A stretch of DNA of 64,000 bases from Pseudomonadota bacterium (lineage in GTDB: Bacteria > Verrucomicrobiota > Verrucomicrobiia > Limisphaerales > SXTU01). A model generated the notes under the pieces. The model ran no database searches and had not been told where the DNA came from. It saw only the letters and a program-made list of their open reading frames with translations. Shown in pieces: positions 1,321 through 63,720 of the stretch (position 1 is its first letter; each line of letters begins with the position of its first letter). The DNA is taken from positions 10,612 to 74,611 of the forward strand of contig RFVF01000016.1 in NCBI GenBank assembly GCA_009922615.1, given 5' to 3'. Made by a program: the position numbers and the translations under genes.

Positions 1321-2253
1321 TTAAAACACCTCCGGCACGCCTTCCTCCATGATGCGCAGGTGCGACGTGAGCTTGTCCCGGCGGGCGAGCTCGCGCAGCC
1401 AGCGCGGCGGCTCGTCCATTTCCTCGAAAGACAACTTGAACGTCCCGTAGTGCATCGGCACAAACCACTTCGCCTTCACTTCGCGGAACACCTTCACCGC
1501 CTCGTCCGGCCCCATGTGGACGTTGCGGAAGCTCTCCGGATAATAAGCGCCGATGGGCAGCAGCGCGATCTCCGGCGCAAGGCGCGCACCGATCTCCTTG
1601 AAGCCATCGAAGTAAGCGCTGTCGCCCGCGTGATAGACCGTGCGGCCTTGGTGCTCCAGCACGAAGCCGCCATAGCCACGGTGCTTGTCCGTGATCGTGC
1701 GAGCGCCCCAGTGTTTGCACGGCGTGAGCGTCACCTTCCAGTCGCCATGGCTGAAGCTTTCCCACCATTGCAGCTCGACGATCCGGCTGAAGCCAAGTCC
1801 GCGCGCGAGATCGCCCATGCCCCACGGCATCACGCCGATCTTGGGATGCGGCAGCTTGCGGATGGACGGTTTGTGGAAGTGGTCAAAGTGCGCGTGCGTC
1901 AGCAGCACCAGGTCGATCGGTGGCAGATCGTCGATCTTCAAACCCGAGCGCCGCAGCCGCTTCAGCAGAAACAGCCAGTTCGCGAAATTCGGGTCGATGA
2001 GGCAATTCAGATCGTTGAACTGCACCAGAAACGACGCATGGCCGATCCACGTCAACGCGAGCTGGCCGCGCGTGAGCTTGGGGAACTTCGGCGGCTGATG
2101 CTCGCCCAGGCGCCGCGTGATCAGCGCCTTCCACACCATTTCCCGGAAGAACGTGCGCGGATTGAAAGCTTTCGTCGGGGTAAGTTCCTTGAACGACCGC
2201 GGCAGCTTGCGCCGCCCGGTGGCACCGTGACCATGACCTGAACCTGACTCCAT
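1321..2253 (-). CDS. MBL-fold metallo-hydrolase
   Basis: 310-aa ORF with LVLLTHAHFDHF (HxHxDH metal motif), later HAGDS and a C-terminal His. Confidence 0.8.
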   Translation of the reverse strand: MESGSGHGHGATGRRKLPRSFKELTPTKAFNPRTFFREMVWKALITRRLGEHQPPKFPKLTRGQLALTWIGHASFLVQFNDLNCLIDPNFANWLFLLKRLRRSGLKIDDLPPIDLVLLTHAHFDHFHKPSIRKLPHPKIGVMPWGMGDLARGLGFSRIVELQWWESFSHGDWKVTLTPCKHWGARTITDKHRGYGGFVLEHQGRTVYHAGDSAYFDGFKEIGARLAPEIALLPIGAYYPESFRNVHMGPDEAVKVFREVKAKWFVPMHYGTFKLSFEEMDEPPRWLRELARRDKLTSHLRIMEEGVPEVF

Positions 2254-2354
2254 AACCGTGATCGTGCCGACACGGGGATTAAGGCGCAGGCCGCTGCCGC
2301 TGGAAACTCAAATTTGCGCTTTGCTCCGCCGCGCCGCCGCCGTTTCATCGCCGC

Positions 2355-2906
2355 ATGACTTTGGACGAACGCTTCGCCACCTACCTCCGCAAACAACCCG
2401 TGCTCGGCCCCGGCGTCTATCTCGCCAAGACCGCCGTCGTCCTCGGCGACGTGACCCTTGGTGCCAACTCCAGCGTGTGGTTTGGGGCCGTCCTGCGCGG
2501 CGACATCAACCGCATCGTCGTCGGTGCCCACTCCAACATCCAGGATAACGCCGTCGTCCACCTCGCCGACGACTTCCCCTGCCTTATCGGCGAGTGGGTC
2601 ACGGTGGGCCACAGCGCCATCGTCCACGCCTGCACCATCGGCGACGAATGCCTCATCGGCATGGGCGCGACCGTCCTCGATGGCGCGGAGGTCGGCGCGC
2701 AAAGCATCGTCGGGGCGAACGCCCTCGTGACCGGAGGAACGAAAGTGCCGCCCGGCTCGCTCGTCCTCGGCTCCCCGGCGAAAGTCGTGCGCGCCCTCAC
2801 GCCCGAGGAACGCGCCGGCCTGAAATACTGGGCCGAGAAATACGTGGCCAACGGAGCCTATTGCCTCAAGCACCACCTCAACGTCGGCGCGCCCCTAGCG
2901 ACGTGA
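2355..2906 (+). CDS. gamma-class carbonic anhydrase family protein (hexapeptide-repeat, YrdA/PaaY-like)
   Basis: ATG start. Left-handed beta-helix repeats are visible: VWFGAVLRGDINRIVVGAHSNIQDNAVVH and VTVGHSAIVHACTIGDECLIGMGATV. Confidence 0.85.
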   Translation: MTLDERFATYLRKQPVLGPGVYLAKTAVVLGDVTLGANSSVWFGAVLRGDINRIVVGAHSNIQDNAVVHLADDFPCLIGEWVTVGHSAIVHACTIGDECLIGMGATVLDGAEVGAQSIVGANALVTGGTKVPPGSLVLGSPAKVVRALTPEERAGLKYWAEKYVANGAYCLKHHLNVGAPLAT

Positions 2907-3284
2907 TCGAGGGCGTCAGCCATCCTTGAAACCCCGCTAGCCAAGGTGGGGCGAGCATCTGCTCGCCGGCAATAGCCGGAAATTTTCCAGCTCCATCTTG
3001 CGATGCGTGTGGCCGACGAGATGCATCCGCACATGGGCAACTCCGCGCCCTCCAGCCATGTGACAGGCTACTACGTGAAAACGTAGCGGCACGCCGTGAG
3101 CCACCGCCAGCACCACTACGACCACCATCGTCGTGCGTTCGAGGAGGAACAGCAGGGCCGGGTGGATTGCGTGTAAGGAGCTCCCACACCTGCCCAGCCA
3201 GCGTGATGAACGCCAGCAACACCGAGCCTATCATTGCCTGCTGGAGCAGCACTTTCAGCCAGAGCGCAATCGGCTCGCCCACGC

Positions 3285-4235
3285 TCAGGCCTGCAAGGCT
3301 TTGCCCCTCCTAGACAGGGCGGCGAACGACTTGAGCTTCTGGCGGAACGAGGCCACGGCTTCGTCGATAAGCGGGTTGCCAAACCTCCGGGCCATGGTGA
3401 TGGCGTAAAATCGTTCGGCCAGCCCGGGCACGCGGATGAGTGTGCGGAGCTGGGGTGATTGGAGTTCCCGTTCGACGACGATGCTGGGCACTAAGGCCAG
3501 TCCCTGACCGGAGAGCGCCAGCAGGCGCAGCAGCGCCATGTCGTCCACCTCGGCCCGGATTTCAGGTTCAATCCGCGCTCCGGCCAGCAACTGGTCAAAG
3601 TCCGCACGCACATGACTCTGGCGGGTGGGCAGCAACAACGGCACGCCCCGGAGCCATGCCGGGAATTTGCCCCGGCCCGGGCGGATTTTCGTGCTGCCAG
3701 CCAGAAAGACCGGGGCCTCGCCGAGCAGATGGTTGTGGATCGTGTGCTCCTGATCGGCGCGCATGGGGATGTTCGAGAGGACTAGGTCGAGCTTGTGCTC
3801 CTGCAGCAGGCGCACCAGCTCAGTCAATCCTCCAGCCAGCACTGTCACGCGCGTGTCGCCACACTCCAGCAACGGTTGAATGAAATCAAACTGAAGGTTC
3901 TTCGACAACGGTCCGACTGCGCCGATGCGCAACTGCTTCTTCTCCTTCCCCGTCTGCCGGAGCCGGTCGAGCAATTCGCGGCCGGTGGCGAAGATGGACT
4001 CGGCATGCTCGAAGGCGATACGACCGGCTTCGGTCAGGTGCAGTTGCCGGCTGCGCCGCTCGAAGAGTGGCTGGCCCAGCCAGCCTTCCAGTTCGCGCAC
4101 CTGCTCGCTCAGAGTGGACTGTGAGACCCGTAGCGCCTCCGCCGCCCGCGTCATGCTGGGGTGCCGGGCGATGACCCAGAAATGCCGCAGGTGGTGGTAG
4201 TTCAGCCAGGTCTGGCCGGATTCTTCGTTCTTCAA
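3285..4235 (-). CDS. LysR-family transcriptional regulator (NhaR-like N-terminus)
   Basis: wHTH region LNYHHLRHFWVIARHPSMTRAAEALRVSQSTLSEQVRELE followed by an LTTR effector domain. The start is uncertain: the ORF track begins at TTG 4271, while a TTG at 4235 gives a family-typical N-terminus (MKNEESGQTWLNYHHL). Confidence 0.85.
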   Translation of the reverse strand: MKNEESGQTWLNYHHLRHFWVIARHPSMTRAAEALRVSQSTLSEQVRELEGWLGQPLFERRSRQLHLTEAGRIAFEHAESIFATGRELLDRLRQTGKEKKQLRIGAVGPLSKNLQFDFIQPLLECGDTRVTVLAGGLTELVRLLQEHKLDLVLSNIPMRADQEHTIHNHLLGEAPVFLAGSTKIRPGRGKFPAWLRGVPLLLPTRQSHVRADFDQLLAGARIEPEIRAEVDDMALLRLLALSGQGLALVPSIVVERELQSPQLRTLIRVPGLAERFYAITMARRFGNPLIDEAVASFRQKLKSFAALSRRGKALQA

Positions 4236-4238
4236 TCG

Positions 4239-4255
4239 GTTCGGAATAACCGAAC
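4239..4255. promoter_or_regulatory. inverted repeat gttcgg-aataa-ccgaac in the LysR / beta-CA divergent region; candidate LTTR operator
   Basis: 6-bp arms with a 5-bp spacer, read directly. It sits in an AT-rich stretch of about 80 bp between the divergent starts (4235 and 4316). Its function is inferred only. Confidence 0.35.
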
Positions 4256-4315
4256 GATAGAATCGTAACAATCTATTATTCCATTCCTAAAATCGGACCT
4301 AGGTTGCGGCCGCAT

Positions 4316-5047
4316 ATGAAACAGCTCATGCAAAAAACATCATCTACCACTGGGGCAGCCCTGTTGCTCGCCCTCTCCCTCCTGACCGTCGGCTGCCAGA
4401 CCGGCGGCCGCCCAGCCTCTACCACGCCGCCCACGCGAACCGAACAACAGACCAGCACGCCTGCCCAGGTGCGGCAGCGCCTAGCGGACGGTAACGCACG
4501 ATATGTCGCGGGCACGCCGTTGGCGCGGGACTGGGCCATGGCCCGCGCCGCAACGGCGGGCGGACAATTCCCTTATGCCGCAGTCTTGAGTTGCCTGGAC
4601 TCTCGGACCTCGGCCGAGATCATCTTCGACCAGGGACACGGCGAAATCTTCAACGCCCGCGTGGCCGGCAACATCCTGAACGATGACATTCTCGGGAGCT
4701 TGGAATTTGCCTGCCAGGTCGCGGGTGCAAAGCTCATCGCCGTGATTGGGCATGCGGAATGCGGAGCGGTCAAGGGCGCGTGCAGTGGGGCAAAACTCGG
4801 GCACCTTACAGGGCTGCTGGAGCGCATCAAACCCGCCGTGACCCAGGTAAGCGGTGGGCAGGCTGTGGACGCAGCCACCCAGCCCCACATCGTCAACGCT
4901 GTGGCCGAGGCCAACGTCCGGCTCGTCTTGCGGCAGATTCGTGAGCGCAGCCCCGTGCTGCGCGCCCTGCTGGACACCGGCAAAATCGCCCTCGCAGGCG
5001 GCCTTTATGACCTCCACTCGGGTCGCGTCAACTTCCTGAACGACTAA
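4316..5047 (+). CDS. beta-class carbonic anhydrase, predicted exported lipoprotein
   Basis: MKQLMQKTSSTTGAALLLALSLLTVGC (signal peptide plus lipobox Cys). Beta-CA zinc-ligand motifs SCLDSR and GHAECGAV are present. Confidence 0.85.
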   Translation: MKQLMQKTSSTTGAALLLALSLLTVGCQTGGRPASTTPPTRTEQQTSTPAQVRQRLADGNARYVAGTPLARDWAMARAATAGGQFPYAAVLSCLDSRTSAEIIFDQGHGEIFNARVAGNILNDDILGSLEFACQVAGAKLIAVIGHAECGAVKGACSGAKLGHLTGLLERIKPAVTQVSGGQAVDAATQPHIVNAVAEANVRLVLRQIRERSPVLRALLDTGKIALAGGLYDLHSGRVNFLND

Positions 5048-5055
5048 GGATCACC

Positions 5056-6036
5056 ATGGACCTCCTGCACGCCCTCAGTTCGAACCTGCTTTCGCCCGCC
5101 GTCCTGTTCTTCGCACTCGGGTTGATCGCCGCGCTCACCAAAAGCGATCTCAAATTCCCTGAAAGCCTTTACGCCAGCCTGACGATTTACCTGCTTGTCG
5201 CCATCGGGTTCAAAGGCGGGGTTGCCATCAATGAAGCCGGCCTCGGCAAGGTCTGGCTCCCGGCGCTGGCCGCGATCACATTGGGAGCGCTCATCCCATT
5301 GTGGACTTATCCACTGCTGCGGTTCGGCGGAAAATTCACCGCCGTGGATGCCTCCGCCATCGCAGCGCACTATGGGTCCGTAAGTGCCGTGACATTCATC
5401 GCAGCTACGAATTATCTGAAAGCCGTGAATCAGCCCTACGAAAGCTACGCCACGGCATTCCTCGCCGTGATGGAATCCCCTGCGATTCTCGTCGGGGTCG
5501 TGCTCGGGAAGCTCGGCTCAAAGCGTAATGGCCCGTTGGACTTGGCAACGCTGAAGTCCACGGTTCATGAAGCTCTCTTCGGGCGTAGCATCTTCCTGCT
5601 CGTTGGCGCGCTCGTGGTTGGAGCGTTGTGCGGCAAGGCGGGTATGGACAAGGTGGAATCATTCTTCGTAACTCCGTTTCAAGGCGTGCTCGCGTTGTTC
5701 CTGCTGGAAATGGGTTTGGTCGCCGGCCGGCGGCTGGAAGACCTTCGAAAGGTTGGCCCATTCCTGCTCGCCTTTGGCGTGGTCATGCCCCTCCTGCACG
5801 GAGCCCTCGGTGTGTATCTGGGCCGATTAGCAGGCTTGGAACTGGGCGGGGCAACACTTTTGGGTGTGCTTTCAGCTAGTGCGAGTTACATAGCAGCTCC
5901 GGCGGCCATCCGCATGTCGCTCCCCGAGGCAAACCCGACGTATTACCTCACCGCCTCGCTGGCCATTACCTTCCCGTTCAACATCACCGTGGGCATTCCG
6001 ATTTACTTCGCCATGGCCGGTTGGCTTTATTCCTGA
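5056..6036 (+). CDS. sbtA: SbtA-family sodium-dependent bicarbonate transporter
   Basis: 326-aa polytopic protein. It starts MDLLHALSSNLLSPAVLFFALG, has FKGGVAI, and has a C-terminal half with PEANPTYYLTASLAITFPFN that mirrors the cyanobacterial SbtA pattern (ANPSAY). Confidence 0.8.
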   Translation: MDLLHALSSNLLSPAVLFFALGLIAALTKSDLKFPESLYASLTIYLLVAIGFKGGVAINEAGLGKVWLPALAAITLGALIPLWTYPLLRFGGKFTAVDASAIAAHYGSVSAVTFIAATNYLKAVNQPYESYATAFLAVMESPAILVGVVLGKLGSKRNGPLDLATLKSTVHEALFGRSIFLLVGALVVGALCGKAGMDKVESFFVTPFQGVLALFLLEMGLVAGRRLEDLRKVGPFLLAFGVVMPLLHGALGVYLGRLAGLELGGATLLGVLSASASYIAAPAAIRMSLPEANPTYYLTASLAITFPFNITVGIPIYFAMAGWLYS

Positions 6037-6038
6037 AC

Positions 6039-6341
6039 ATGAACCACCACCCAATGAAGCTCGTAACCATCGTCTGTGAATCCCACGCTCGCGAGGCAGT
6101 AACAAAAATGCTCCGCGAAGCCGGTGCGCATGGCTGGACACTCTTCCCTGTGGAAGGCGACGGTGCACATGGAAGGCGTCCGGCAGACATCCCCGAATAT
6201 ACCAACGTGCAGGTCGAAGTCATCGTGCCGCCAGAAGTGTCAAACACGCTATTTGAGCGTCTCGGTCGAGAATTCTTCCCGCGCTACGCGATGATTGCCT
6301 TTGAATCCGATGTGCGTGTGTTGCGCCCAGGAAAGTTTTAA
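6039..6341 (+). CDS. sbtB: PII-like signalling protein SbtB
   Basis: The ATG lies 2 nt after the sbtA stop. About 100 aa reading MNHHPMKLVTIVCESHAREAVTKMLREAGAHGWTLFPVEG, a PII-like beta-alpha-beta pattern, in the conserved position after sbtA. Confidence 0.7.
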   Translation: MNHHPMKLVTIVCESHAREAVTKMLREAGAHGWTLFPVEGDGAHGRRPADIPEYTNVQVEVIVPPEVSNTLFERLGREFFPRYAMIAFESDVRVLRPGKF

Positions 6342-6376
6342 GCGAATCACCAGTGCGGGTCCAAGTCTGGATGCAG

Positions 6377-7216
6377 TCATTTGCGCTCATGCGCAAGGAA
6401 CCACTCGTAGAGCTTTGGGTTGTTATAAGTCTCCGTCCAAGAGTCGTGCTGGGCGTCGGGATAGACGGTGAGTTGCACATCTTTCACGCCGAGTTTTTTT
6501 AGAAGGTTCACGAGCCGCTCGGATTCGTTGGGCGGCACCACGCCGTCCTTCGCACCGTGGAAGGCCCAGACAGGCGTGGTCTTGAGCGCGGTGCCTTTCC
6601 CGCCGCCGGCCAGCAAAAAGTCAATCGTGTCCCCGCCGCCGCAGATGGGCGCGACGGCCGCGAAGCGCTCGGGGGCCCGGGCCAGCAGCGCCCACGAGCC
6701 GTAACCGCCCATGCTCAGGCCGGTGAGGTAAACCCGGCGGGGGTCCACACGATGCGCGGCTTGGACGGTGGCGAGCAGTTCCAACAAAACCTCGGCATCC
6801 CATCGTTCATCGTTCGGGCACTGCGGCGAGATGATGATGAAGTTCTCGGCGGCCAGTTTGGTGGCGGCCTCACGGTTGGTCTTCGCCTCGGCGGTTTCGT
6901 TTTTTGGCGCAGGCGGGTTTTTCTTCACCAGCTTGGGCGGGCCGTGGACAGCGACCTGAGCCAGATTAGTGCCGCGCTCGCCCGAGCCATGCAGGAAGAG
7001 GATGAGCGGCCATTGTTTCGCGGCCTTGGCGTCGTAGCCGGGCGGCAGATAGAGCAGATAACCGAGTTCAACTTTTTTGGTGCGGACGATTGAGAGCTTC
7101 TGGCGCGTTTGCATGAGGTCAGGGTCGGGGGTTTCGGCGGCGGTCACGGTTGCGGCGGCCAGCAGGCAGCCAACCGCGCACCACCAGTGGAGCGGGCGAA
7201 GGGCAAGCAATGTCAT
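6377..7216 (-). CDS. secreted alpha/beta hydrolase (carboxylesterase / PHB-depolymerase-like)
   Basis: Signal peptide, LILFLHGSGERG, nucleophile elbow GLSMGG, and C-terminal HGAKDGVV plus His. Confidence 0.75.
   Translation of the reverse strand: MTLLALRPLHWWCAVGCLLAAATVTAAETPDPDLMQTRQKLSIVRTKKVELGYLLYLPPGYDAKAAKQWPLILFLHGSGERGTNLAQVAVHGPPKLVKKNPPAPKNETAEAKTNREAATKLAAENFIIISPQCPNDERWDAEVLLELLATVQAAHRVDPRRVYLTGLSMGGYGSWALLARAPERFAAVAPICGGGDTIDFLLAGGGKGTALKTTPVWAFHGAKDGVVPPNESERLVNLLKKLGVKDVQLTVYPDAQHDSWTETYNNPKLYEWFLAHERK

Positions 7217-63644: not shown

Positions 63645-63720
<76 letters not shown>

Follow-up and report, generated by a model that had tools for sequence, protein, structure and literature searches.

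The 64,000-nucleotide (nt) stretch of contig RFVF01000016.1 analysed here (assembly GCA_009922615.1, positions 10,612 to 74,611; hereafter the window), which belongs to a freshwater bacterium of the Verrucomicrobiota lineage, contains a gene for a LysR-type regulator and, divergently oriented to it, genes for a β-carbonic anhydrase (CA) with a predicted export signal, an Sbt_1/SbtA-family permease and a PII-like SbtB homologue. We consider it moderately likely that this LysR-controlled CA-sbtA-sbtB operon supplies cytoplasmic bicarbonate to biosynthetic and anaplerotic carboxylases and does not serve autotrophy. Bicarbonate supply for ordinary carboxylations is favoured because the unit is accompanied by purK-purE, pyruvate carboxylase or DabAB genes in related loci and because matches to RuBisCO and carboxysome genes were obtained neither in the window nor in 93 loci. 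The gene families themselves are ordinary and already annotated; the novelty lies in how they are combined and in the role that this suggests for them in heterotrophs.

Organization and conservation of the gene unit

Genes were called from the open reading frame (ORF) list, the raw sequence and Pfam and NCBIfam profile searches of the window (Table 1). All five genes of the original prediction, a γ-CA-family gene included, were recovered where it had placed them, and the profile searches for the SbtA, PII-like/SbtB and β-CA families confirmed their assignments, the zinc site of the CA being intact. The CA stop codon is separated by 8 nt from the ATG of sbtA, and the ATG of the SbtB homologue lies, exactly as predicted, 2 nt past the sbtA stop; the gene downstream of the SbtB homologue is convergent, and a sequence scan detected no terminator-like sites between CA, sbtA and sbtB. 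Owing to the tight gaps, the lack of an internal terminator and the convergent downstream gene, the three genes look like a single transcription unit, that is, one operon divergent from the LysR gene. An Rfam search revealed neither a riboswitch nor another RNA near the operon, its sole match being a tRNA at 63645–63717.

Relatives were gathered by a genome scan with a nine-sequence permease alignment, which provided 80 species-representative loci with permease relatives at 51–83% identity and thus, together with the window contig, 81 loci (individual loci are designated L062 and the like). They are mostly from Verrucomicrobiota; the others derive from metagenome-assembled genomes (MAGs) labelled Gemmatimonadota, Chloroflexota, Deinococcota, Bacteroidota, Bdellovibrionota, Chlorobi-like and Nitrospirota, and for many of the loci, which are contigs of MAGs, the taxonomic assignment is unreliable. 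Neighbourhoods were counted by tblastn, as ORF calling was noisy from antisense ORFs in this DNA of high guanine-plus-cytosine (GC) content. In 68 of the 78 loci whose flanks are long enough, sbtA is directly followed by a PII-like gene (at most 120 nt away, on the same strand), which together with the PF00543 match in the window (67 bits) bears out the proposed SbtB gene behind sbtA. The β-CA gene is found directly upstream of sbtA in 10 of the 81 loci and just after sbtB in three, the loci concerned coming from Verrucomicrobiota, Acidobacteriota, Bacteroidota, Chlorobi-like and Alphaproteobacteria MAGs. A β-CA with a signal peptide neighbours the unit in 12 loci. Wherever an adjacent CA of the same clade is fully contained in its contig, it possesses a signal peptide irrespective of the phylum, with a lipobox in four cases (window, L010, L022 and L034) and a signal of the signal-peptidase-I type in six; the two adjacent CAs that are devoid of a signal (L081 and L019) are both of another β-CA type. 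A gene for a related LysR protein (47% identity or more) neighbours the unit in about 10 of the 81 loci.

The reverse look-up, starting from seven CA homologues on long contigs, revealed the order CA, Sbt_1 and a small gene in six cases, and one of the homologues was not next to sbtA. The small gene codes for a PII protein in five of these loci and in L088 for a product of 128 amino acids (aa) with no Pfam match; a divergent LysR gene is present in five of the six. With Sbt_1 as the partner in six of seven look-ups, most CAs of this clade therefore appear to be dedicated to sbtA. As the arrangement recurs across species and phyla it is far beyond chance, and LysR, CA, sbtA and sbtB form the coherent unit that had originally been proposed, found again in other loci with a common operator-like region (see below). 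In a Chloroherpetonaceae MAG (L074, 6001–9300), the gene for a signal-peptide CA is followed by two SbtA-like/PII-like gene pairs in tandem. A number of MAGs bear implausible labels, namely L012, L016 and L035 (‘Akkermansia muciniphila’), L021 (‘Klebsiella pneumoniae’), L019 (‘Hyphomicrobiales’), L020 (‘Gemmatimonadetes’), L026 (‘Schlesneria paludicola’) and L040 (‘Kapaibacterium’). Their SbtA-like proteins are 71–82% identical to that of the window and their neighbourhoods are of the Verrucomicrobia type, which suggests that the bins are mislabelled or contaminated or that horizontal transfer took place recently.

Links to bicarbonate-using genes

The neighbour families in the relatives were verified by Pfam. 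purK and/or purE are adjacent to the unit in 18 of the 81 loci, the typical order being purK-purE-sbtA-sbtB. The order purE-CA-sbtA-sbtB occurs in L010 and L087, in the latter in full as purK-purE-CA-sbtA-sbtB (2108–6041), and a LysR gene is divergent from CA-sbtA-sbtB-purK-purE in L089 (2984–8753), L090 (2988–8729) and L091 (2999–7807). After purE, L089, L090 and one further locus of the CA look-up encode a protein of 1156 aa with the full set of pyruvate carboxylase domains. The genes for NADP-isocitrate dehydrogenase (bacterial C-terminal domain), another CO2/HCO3−-linked neighbour, are located just upstream of sbtA-sbtB in L062 (365–3167, Meiothermus luteus), L081 and L085; a CA gene was not seen in the Meiothermus locus. 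Four Verrucomicrobiaceae loci (L036, L038, L041 and L044) show the arrangement sbtA-sbtB-LysR-dabB-dabA. Their LysR gene, whose product is 49% identical to that of the window, resides on the opposite strand, divergent from dabB-dabA, the whole region extending over ~300–5500 nt downstream of sbtA; DabA matches PF10070 with 900 bits, and the LysR-dabB spacers have a conserved motif of their own, ...CAAAGCGAACGAT...GGCAAAACATGAATTGGAG.

PurK and pyruvate carboxylase use HCO3−, and DabAB is an inorganic-carbon pump. PurK is also covered in PMC10880623, according to which purK mutants need high CO2, and heterotrophs generally require a CA or a transporter for dissolved inorganic carbon (DIC) for growth in air (MpsAB, PMC6689103). 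Tblastn searches for RbcL, bacterial microcompartment (BMC) shell proteins and phosphoribulokinase, carried out with approximate query peptides, gave no match in the window or in the 93 loci (881 kb). The original prediction had left the choice between a carbon-concentrating and an anaplerotic device; the latter, extended to biosynthetic carboxylations, is backed by the purK-purE and pyruvate carboxylase links, and the former is not supported, as RuBisCO and carboxysome genes were not found in the window and these loci.

The β-carbonic anhydrase

The CA scores 244.7 bits with the curated PRK15219 subfamily profile (NF011765, NCBIfam) and thus lies above its cutoff of 221. The zinc/catalytic motifs SCLDSR (C-x-D-x-R) and GHAECG (H-x-x-C) are present and align with those of Rv3588c of M. 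tuberculosis (PDB 1ym3, E 6e-28). The N-terminus, MKQLMQKTSSTTGAALLLALSLLTVGC, is composed of the n-region MKQLMQK with two lysines, a hydrophobic core and the lipobox LTVGC (LLTVGC), whose cysteine is residue 27 (nt 4394–4396), and a Pro/Thr-rich linker of roughly 25 residues follows the lipobox. The export signal was judged by a PROSITE-style lipobox pattern and by hydrophobicity, which is a pattern test only. Signal peptide and lipobox cysteine, both read from the window beforehand, are conserved among the 120 closest homologues (53–100% identity), 95 of which match the lipobox pattern and 114 of which have a hydrophobic N-terminus; most of the homologues without a lipobox match carry AxA-type signal peptides. 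The window CA is accordingly conserved in its signal and is predicted to be lipid-anchored outside the cytoplasm. Since even the distant CA of the Salmonella virulence plasmid, which is 46.6% identical to the window CA, bears an export signal (Tat-type, SRRAILK), export appears to be a property of the whole PRK15219 subfamily. This Salmonella enzyme occurs in 389 Salmonella plasmid records; in the example of NZ_CP075123.1 (L093, 2372–3112), no sbtA neighbour lies beside its gene.

The permease and its PII-like partner

The permease covers positions 1–307 of the 308 positions of the PF05982 profile (397 bits) and is related to SbtA of Synechocystis (PDB 7cye) with an E value of 1e-32 and identities of 31% and 37% over the two halves. 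It represents a ‘short’ form (TC 2.A.83 family), as the ~45-residue cytoplasmic loop of Synechocystis SbtA is absent. The residues of the Na+-site crossover and the proposed HCO3− ligands of Synechocystis SbtA were taken from PMC8352866, where the HCO3− site is defined via docking plus mutagenesis. In the crossover of transmembrane helices TM4 and TM9, F110/G111/A112 correspond to Y106/G107/S108 and A320/S322 to S273/S275 of the window permease; at least 132 of the 136 members of the clade retain the crossover residues G107, S110, S275 and S277. Of the four proposed HCO3− ligands, S114 and S324 correspond to S110 and S277, both kept in at least 134 of the 136, and Y140 and S327 are replaced (see below). 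The full-length profile match, the homology to 7cye and the retained Na+-site residues corroborate the assignment to the SbtA-family transporters, and bicarbonate is the likely substrate. The non-cyanobacterial SbtA clade is very large, with 2820 clusters at 50% identity in an exhaustive HMMER search (E at most 1e-3) and at least 7995 clusters at 90% identity in a word-indexed search with the permease. Between different orders of Verrucomicrobiota, the permease retains about 80% identity, an unusually high degree of conservation.

Among proteins of known structure, the SbtB homologue is best matched by TTHA0516 of Thermus thermophilus (PDB 2cz4, E 6e-16, 40% identity), and matches were also obtained with SbtB of Cyanobium (6mm2, E 2e-8) and of Synechocystis (E 7e-4). 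TTHA0516 is 75% identical to the product of the PII-like gene that follows the SbtA-like gene in Meiothermus (L062), and this orphan structure therefore belongs to the same subfamily of SbtA partners. The nucleotide pocket was mapped by transferring the PDB-search alignment onto the SbtB7001 residues given in bioRxiv 10.1101/762807. G31, T33, R46, Y57, N59 and I90 of SbtB7001 are kept as G27, T29, R42, Y49, N51 and I81, and four residues are changed (S30 to H, R43 to H, S88 to A and H102 to G); the T-loop is 4 residues shorter than in SbtB7001. A C-terminal CGPxGC R-loop is absent in the window protein, which ends with ...VLRPGKF. The R-loop is, however, limited to a subset of cyanobacterial SbtBs and does not define the family (bioRxiv 10.1101/762807). 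Different pipelines call the SbtB homologue at 77, 95 or 100 aa, and an alternative start at ATG 6054 would give the 95-aa form. NCBI labels it ‘transcriptional regulator’, which is probably an annotation error propagated over MAGs.

The LysR regulator and the regulatory region

The regulator, initially described as a divergent LysR protein with an NhaR-like helix-turn-helix (HTH), indeed possesses HTH_1 and LysR_substrate domains. NhaR is its best NCBIfam match but, with 133 bits, remains below the cutoff of 219, so that the protein is NhaR-like and not an NhaR equivalog; CynR is also among the matches (84 bits). The PDB matches are generic (CatM, BenM, GcvA and the HTH of NdhR) and provide no hint of the effector. 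LysR orthologues of 65–66% identity are encoded divergently from sbtA or CA-sbtA in L017, L022, L025 and L046, and their genes start 3–5 nt from a conserved box, in a position that matches TTG 4235 of the window. Because of these matching positions, TTG 4235 is the most likely start, which would yield a protein of 316 aa compared to 328 aa for the maximal ORF and 289 aa for the NCBI call; the latter would cut into the HTH.

Two conserved boxes became apparent when the spacers between the LysR gene and its target were aligned for the window, L022, L017, L046 and L025. One of them, TCGGAWTWACCGA (window 4241–4253), is a T-N11-A dyad of the kind recognised by LysR regulators; the other, ACAATCTRTTWTT (window 4268–4280), is invariant or nearly so in the five loci. 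A repeat search in the LysR-CA spacer found no repeat at its length threshold, and the dyad with its 6-nt arms emerged from the cross-species comparison. GTAACA-17 nt-TAAAAT (4265–4293) is the sole promoter-like site on the operon strand, and the conserved boxes may function as promoter and operator-like elements. Both boxes are unchanged whether the first regulated gene is CA or sbtA; the CA gene has therefore apparently been inserted into the regulated operon at the position next to the promoter.

Further features of the window

Table 1. Genes and sequence elements of the CA-sbtA-sbtB locus (positions refer to the window).
Feature	Position	Strand	Evidence or remark
γ-CA-family hexapeptide-repeat protein	2355–2906	+	NF050158 184 bits, under the 250-bit cutoff
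LysR-type regulator	3285–4235 (longest ORF to 4271)	-	HTH_1 76 bits, LysR_substrate 85 bits (Pfam)
Extended dyad TTCGGAATAACCGAA	4240–4254		around the candidate LysR site
Candidate LysR recognition site TCGGAATAACCGA, T-N11-A dyad	4241–4253		cross-species conservation, five loci
Promoter-like site of CA-sbtA-sbtB	4265–4293	+	-35 GTAACA, 17-nt spacer, -10 TAAAAT; consensus scan
Second conserved box ACAATCTATTATT	4268–4280		overlaps the -35 element of the promoter-like site
Predicted lipoprotein signal peptide of the β-CA	4316–4396	+	lipobox L-T-V-G-C, Cys27
β-Carbonic anhydrase, 243 aa	4316–5047	+	PF00484 128 bits; NF011765/PRK15219 245 bits
Sbt_1/SbtA-family permease, 326 aa	5056–6036	+	PF05982 397 bits, full profile
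PII-like SbtB homologue, 100 aa	6039–6341	+	PF00543 67 bits

The γ-CA gene (YrdA/PaaY-like) displays an H...H-x4-H pattern and is situated 378 nt beyond the LysR stop codon, in agreement with the distance of about 400 bp first noted. It is adjacent to the sbtA unit in just one of the 81 loci, namely on the window contig itself, and was therefore rejected as a member of the module, although an active cytoplasmic γ-CA would be relevant to any model of bicarbonate accumulation. The intervening spacer of 378 nt (2907–3284) contains no called gene. It is overlapped by a minus-strand ORF (2878–3282) with a GTG start directly after the LysR stop and a transmembrane-like N-terminus, and another frame yields a His/Cys-rich peptide; conservation of these ORFs or of the DNA was not found beyond the same species.

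The window contig is identical to contigs in several freshwater metagenome assemblies, and in ‘Verrucomicrobia bacterium’ MAGs the NCBI names are carbonic anhydrase, sodium-dependent bicarbonate transport family permease and gamma carbonic anhydrase family protein. The flanking genes of the contig code for a sulfatase, DUF1501, a peptide ABC transporter, a lipase and a prepilin-type protein and are typical of heterotrophic bacteria of the Planctomycetes-Verrucomicrobia-Chlamydiae (PVC) group. The GC content is 0.54–0.60 across sbtA-sbtB (window 5001–6500) compared to 0.62–0.68 in the flanks, and the GC content at third codon positions is 0.71–0.76 for sbtA and CA compared to 0.78–0.90 for most neighbours. 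The low GC over sbtA-sbtB may result from the composition of membrane proteins or from a foreign origin.

Proposed function and alternative explanations

On the basis of homology and gene context, we propose the following scenario. The CA would be exported via the Sec/lipoprotein route and tethered outside the cytoplasm by its linker, where it would hydrate external CO2 as well as CO2 leaking from respiration and decarboxylation to HCO3−. As uncatalysed hydration of CO2 is slow, the CA would thereby open the membrane-permeant CO2 pool to the transporter. The SbtA-like permease would import the HCO3−, probably together with Na+, and the SbtB homologue might dock onto the cytoplasmic face of the permease and gate it by the adenine-nucleotide status. 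Upon shortage of inorganic carbon, the LysR regulator might bind to the T-N11-A site and turn the operon on. The net effect would correspond to the vectorial CO2 hydration by DabAB/MpsAB, split over two proteins in two compartments.

Several points weigh against the supply of bicarbonate to carboxylases as the function of the operon. The identity of the permease to characterised SbtA is just 31–37%, and the proposed HCO3− ligands Y140 and S327 are replaced by L136 and A280, the respective positions being L/M/V and A clade-wide among the 136 members; data on transport, localisation or expression of members of the ‘short’ SbtA clade were not found in the literature. The lipobox predicts lipidation and gives no clue to which membrane, so that the original placement of the CA ‘at the transporter entrance’ over-reads the data. 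About 84% of the sbtA-sbtB loci have no adjacent CA gene, and the CA is thus to be regarded as an optional accessory. A tblastn search of the 64-kb window for purK, purE and pyc was negative; the window thus carries a minimal version of the unit. Finally, the heterotrophic lifestyle of the host is deduced from taxonomy and neighbour genes only.

The unit might alternatively constitute the uptake arm of a true CO2-concentrating mechanism (CCM) that feeds RuBisCO, as it does in cyanobacteria and sulfur-oxidising Pseudomonadota, the host then being an autotroph or mixotroph. SbtA/SbtB is indeed a CCM component in cyanobacteria, sbtA of Thiomicrospira is strongly induced at low DIC (280-fold in T. 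pelophila, PMC12628692), and DabAB is encoded beside sbtAB in four relatives. We nevertheless judge this possibility to be very improbable, as the approximate RbcL, BMC-shell and phosphoribulokinase queries matched neither the window nor the 93 loci, as the recurrent neighbours are instead purK, purE, pyruvate carboxylase, LysR and isocitrate dehydrogenase, and as the contig carries sulfatase, DUF1501, peptide ABC transporter and lipase genes, as is typical of heterotrophs of the PVC group. We also regard it as unlikely that the unit is a CO2/HCO3− shuttle serving pH or Na+ homeostasis. Such a shuttle would comprise Na+-coupled HCO3− import, proton-consuming dehydration in the cytoplasm, outward diffusion of the CO2 and its rehydration by the exported CA, resulting in net proton export or buffering of the periplasm. 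The nearest named relative of the regulator, NhaR, is a Na+/pH-responsive activator of nhaA, a γ-CA-family gene is nearby in the window genome, and periplasm-buffering CAs exist in other bacteria such as Helicobacter. The NhaR match, however, is below its cutoff (133 versus 219 bits), the γ-CA adjacency is restricted to one of 81 loci, and the linkage to purK-purE and pyruvate carboxylase indicates consumption of HCO3− rather than its cycling.

Two of the four proposed HCO3− ligand positions that differ throughout the clade, the low identity (31–37%) to characterised SbtA and the presence of CynR among the NCBIfam matches of the regulator (84 bits) would be compatible with a ‘short’ SbtA-like permease moving another small anion and with a different purpose of the CA, comparable to that of CynT in the cynR-cynTSX cyanate system of E. 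coli. No PF05982 member is known to have a substrate other than bicarbonate. The unit is linked neither to cyanase nor to any other enzyme specific for a given substrate, its CA differs from CynT in being exported, and the recurrent partners (β-CA, DabAB, PurK/PurE, pyruvate carboxylase and isocitrate dehydrogenase) all handle inorganic carbon, which makes this explanation quite unlikely. Coincidental adjacency of four unrelated genes, which does apply to the γ-CA gene, has a negligible probability for the unit itself and is effectively refuted by conservation: sbtA has a PII-like gene behind it in 68 of 78 loci, a CA gene lies beside the unit in 13 of 81 loci from several phyla, Sbt_1 is found directly after the CA in six of seven reciprocal look-ups, and the regulatory boxes are conserved. 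By our own estimate, a CA would flank a given gene by chance in well under 1% of cases.

Beyond the supply of bicarbonate to carboxylases, it is conceivable, though we hold this more far-reaching idea only tentatively and at somewhat less than even chance, that the exported CA and SbtA/SbtB act as a two-compartment CO2-recapture pump equivalent in function to DabAB/MpsAB, which together with purK-purE and pyruvate carboxylase would form a LysR-controlled ‘bicarbonate regulon’ in abundant freshwater Verrucomicrobiota. Such a regulon would constitute a dedicated and regulated route of dark inorganic-carbon assimilation for heterotrophs, and it would provide the first physiological role for the very large non-cyanobacterial SbtA clade, whose gene neighbourhoods point to the feeding of housekeeping carboxylases in heterotrophs. 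If confirmed, such feeding of carboxylases would explain the bicarbonate supply of some CA-poor or low-CO2-adapted heterotrophs and would be relevant to the fixation of DIC in the dark in lakes. This function would moreover make a role of SbtB outside photosynthesis directly testable and offer a compact cassette of three genes (exported CA, transporter and regulator protein) with a possible use in the engineering of bicarbonate uptake.

Comparison with known systems

Earlier work has already noted SbtA-family genes outside the cyanobacteria and also in heterotrophs (PMC10880623; for SAR11, PMC10030771). Literature searches produced no account of an operon in which an exported CA is encoded together with sbtA-sbtB, of a link between such an operon and purK-purE and pyruvate carboxylase, or of its LysR operator. 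The pairing of an exported CA with SbtA/SbtB, which the original prediction did not know to be characterised, therefore appears to be new as an operon, whereas the underlying idea is not, since an extracellular CA that keeps the periplasmic DIC equilibrated and thereby assists DIC transporters is a published hypothesis for autotrophs (PMC10880623).

The SbtA/SbtB systems of Synechocystis (slr1512/slr1513) and Cyanobium PCC7001 share with the window the Pfam family and fold, the order sbtA-then-sbtB, the crossover residues of the Na+ site, two of the proposed HCO3− ligands and a largely kept nucleotide pocket of SbtB. Transcription in Synechocystis is also under the control of a LysR-type regulator (CcmR/NdhR). 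The differences concern the permease, which has 326 aa compared to 374 aa in Synechocystis SbtA, is devoid of the ~45-residue loop and carries L/A in place of Y140/S327, and the SbtB homologue with its T-loop shortened by 4 residues and its absent R-loop. They also concern the host, a probable heterotroph, the exported CA as the first gene of the operon, and the relatives, in which the genes linked to the unit are those for PurK-PurE and pyruvate carboxylase and not CCM genes. TTHA0516 (PDB 2cz4), the closest structural relative of the SbtB homologue, belongs to a different phylum and is a PII-like protein with no assigned function.

Other exported CAs are the cyanobacterial EcaA/EcaB and the periplasmic CA of Rhodopseudomonas palustris. 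The Salmonella virulence-plasmid CA is likewise a PRK15219-type β-CA with an N-terminal export signal; this signal is, however, Tat-type and that of the window CA is of the Sec/lipoprotein type, and the window CA is the promoter-proximal gene of an sbtA-sbtB operon. With the cynR/cynTSX system of E. coli, the window shares the divergent LysR gene, the β-CA as the first gene of the operon and the subsequent membrane transporter. The window unit nevertheless lacks a cyanase, its CA is exported and not cytoplasmic, and its transporter is SbtA-like and not the major facilitator superfamily protein CynX. In terms of function, a close parallel would be DabAB/MpsAB of heterotrophs such as S. aureus (MpsAB, PMC6689103), with which the window unit would share its proposed role, namely the provision of cytoplasmic HCO3− for anabolic carboxylations at air-level CO2. 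CO2 as the ultimate source and an ion gradient as the energy supply would be common to both, and dabBA is found beside sbtAB in four relatives. The proteins, however, are unrelated, and the strategies differ in that with Dab a single complex performs the hydration of CO2, on the cytoplasmic side, whereas hydration by the exported CA and translocation by the SbtA-like permease would be performed by separate proteins in separate compartments.

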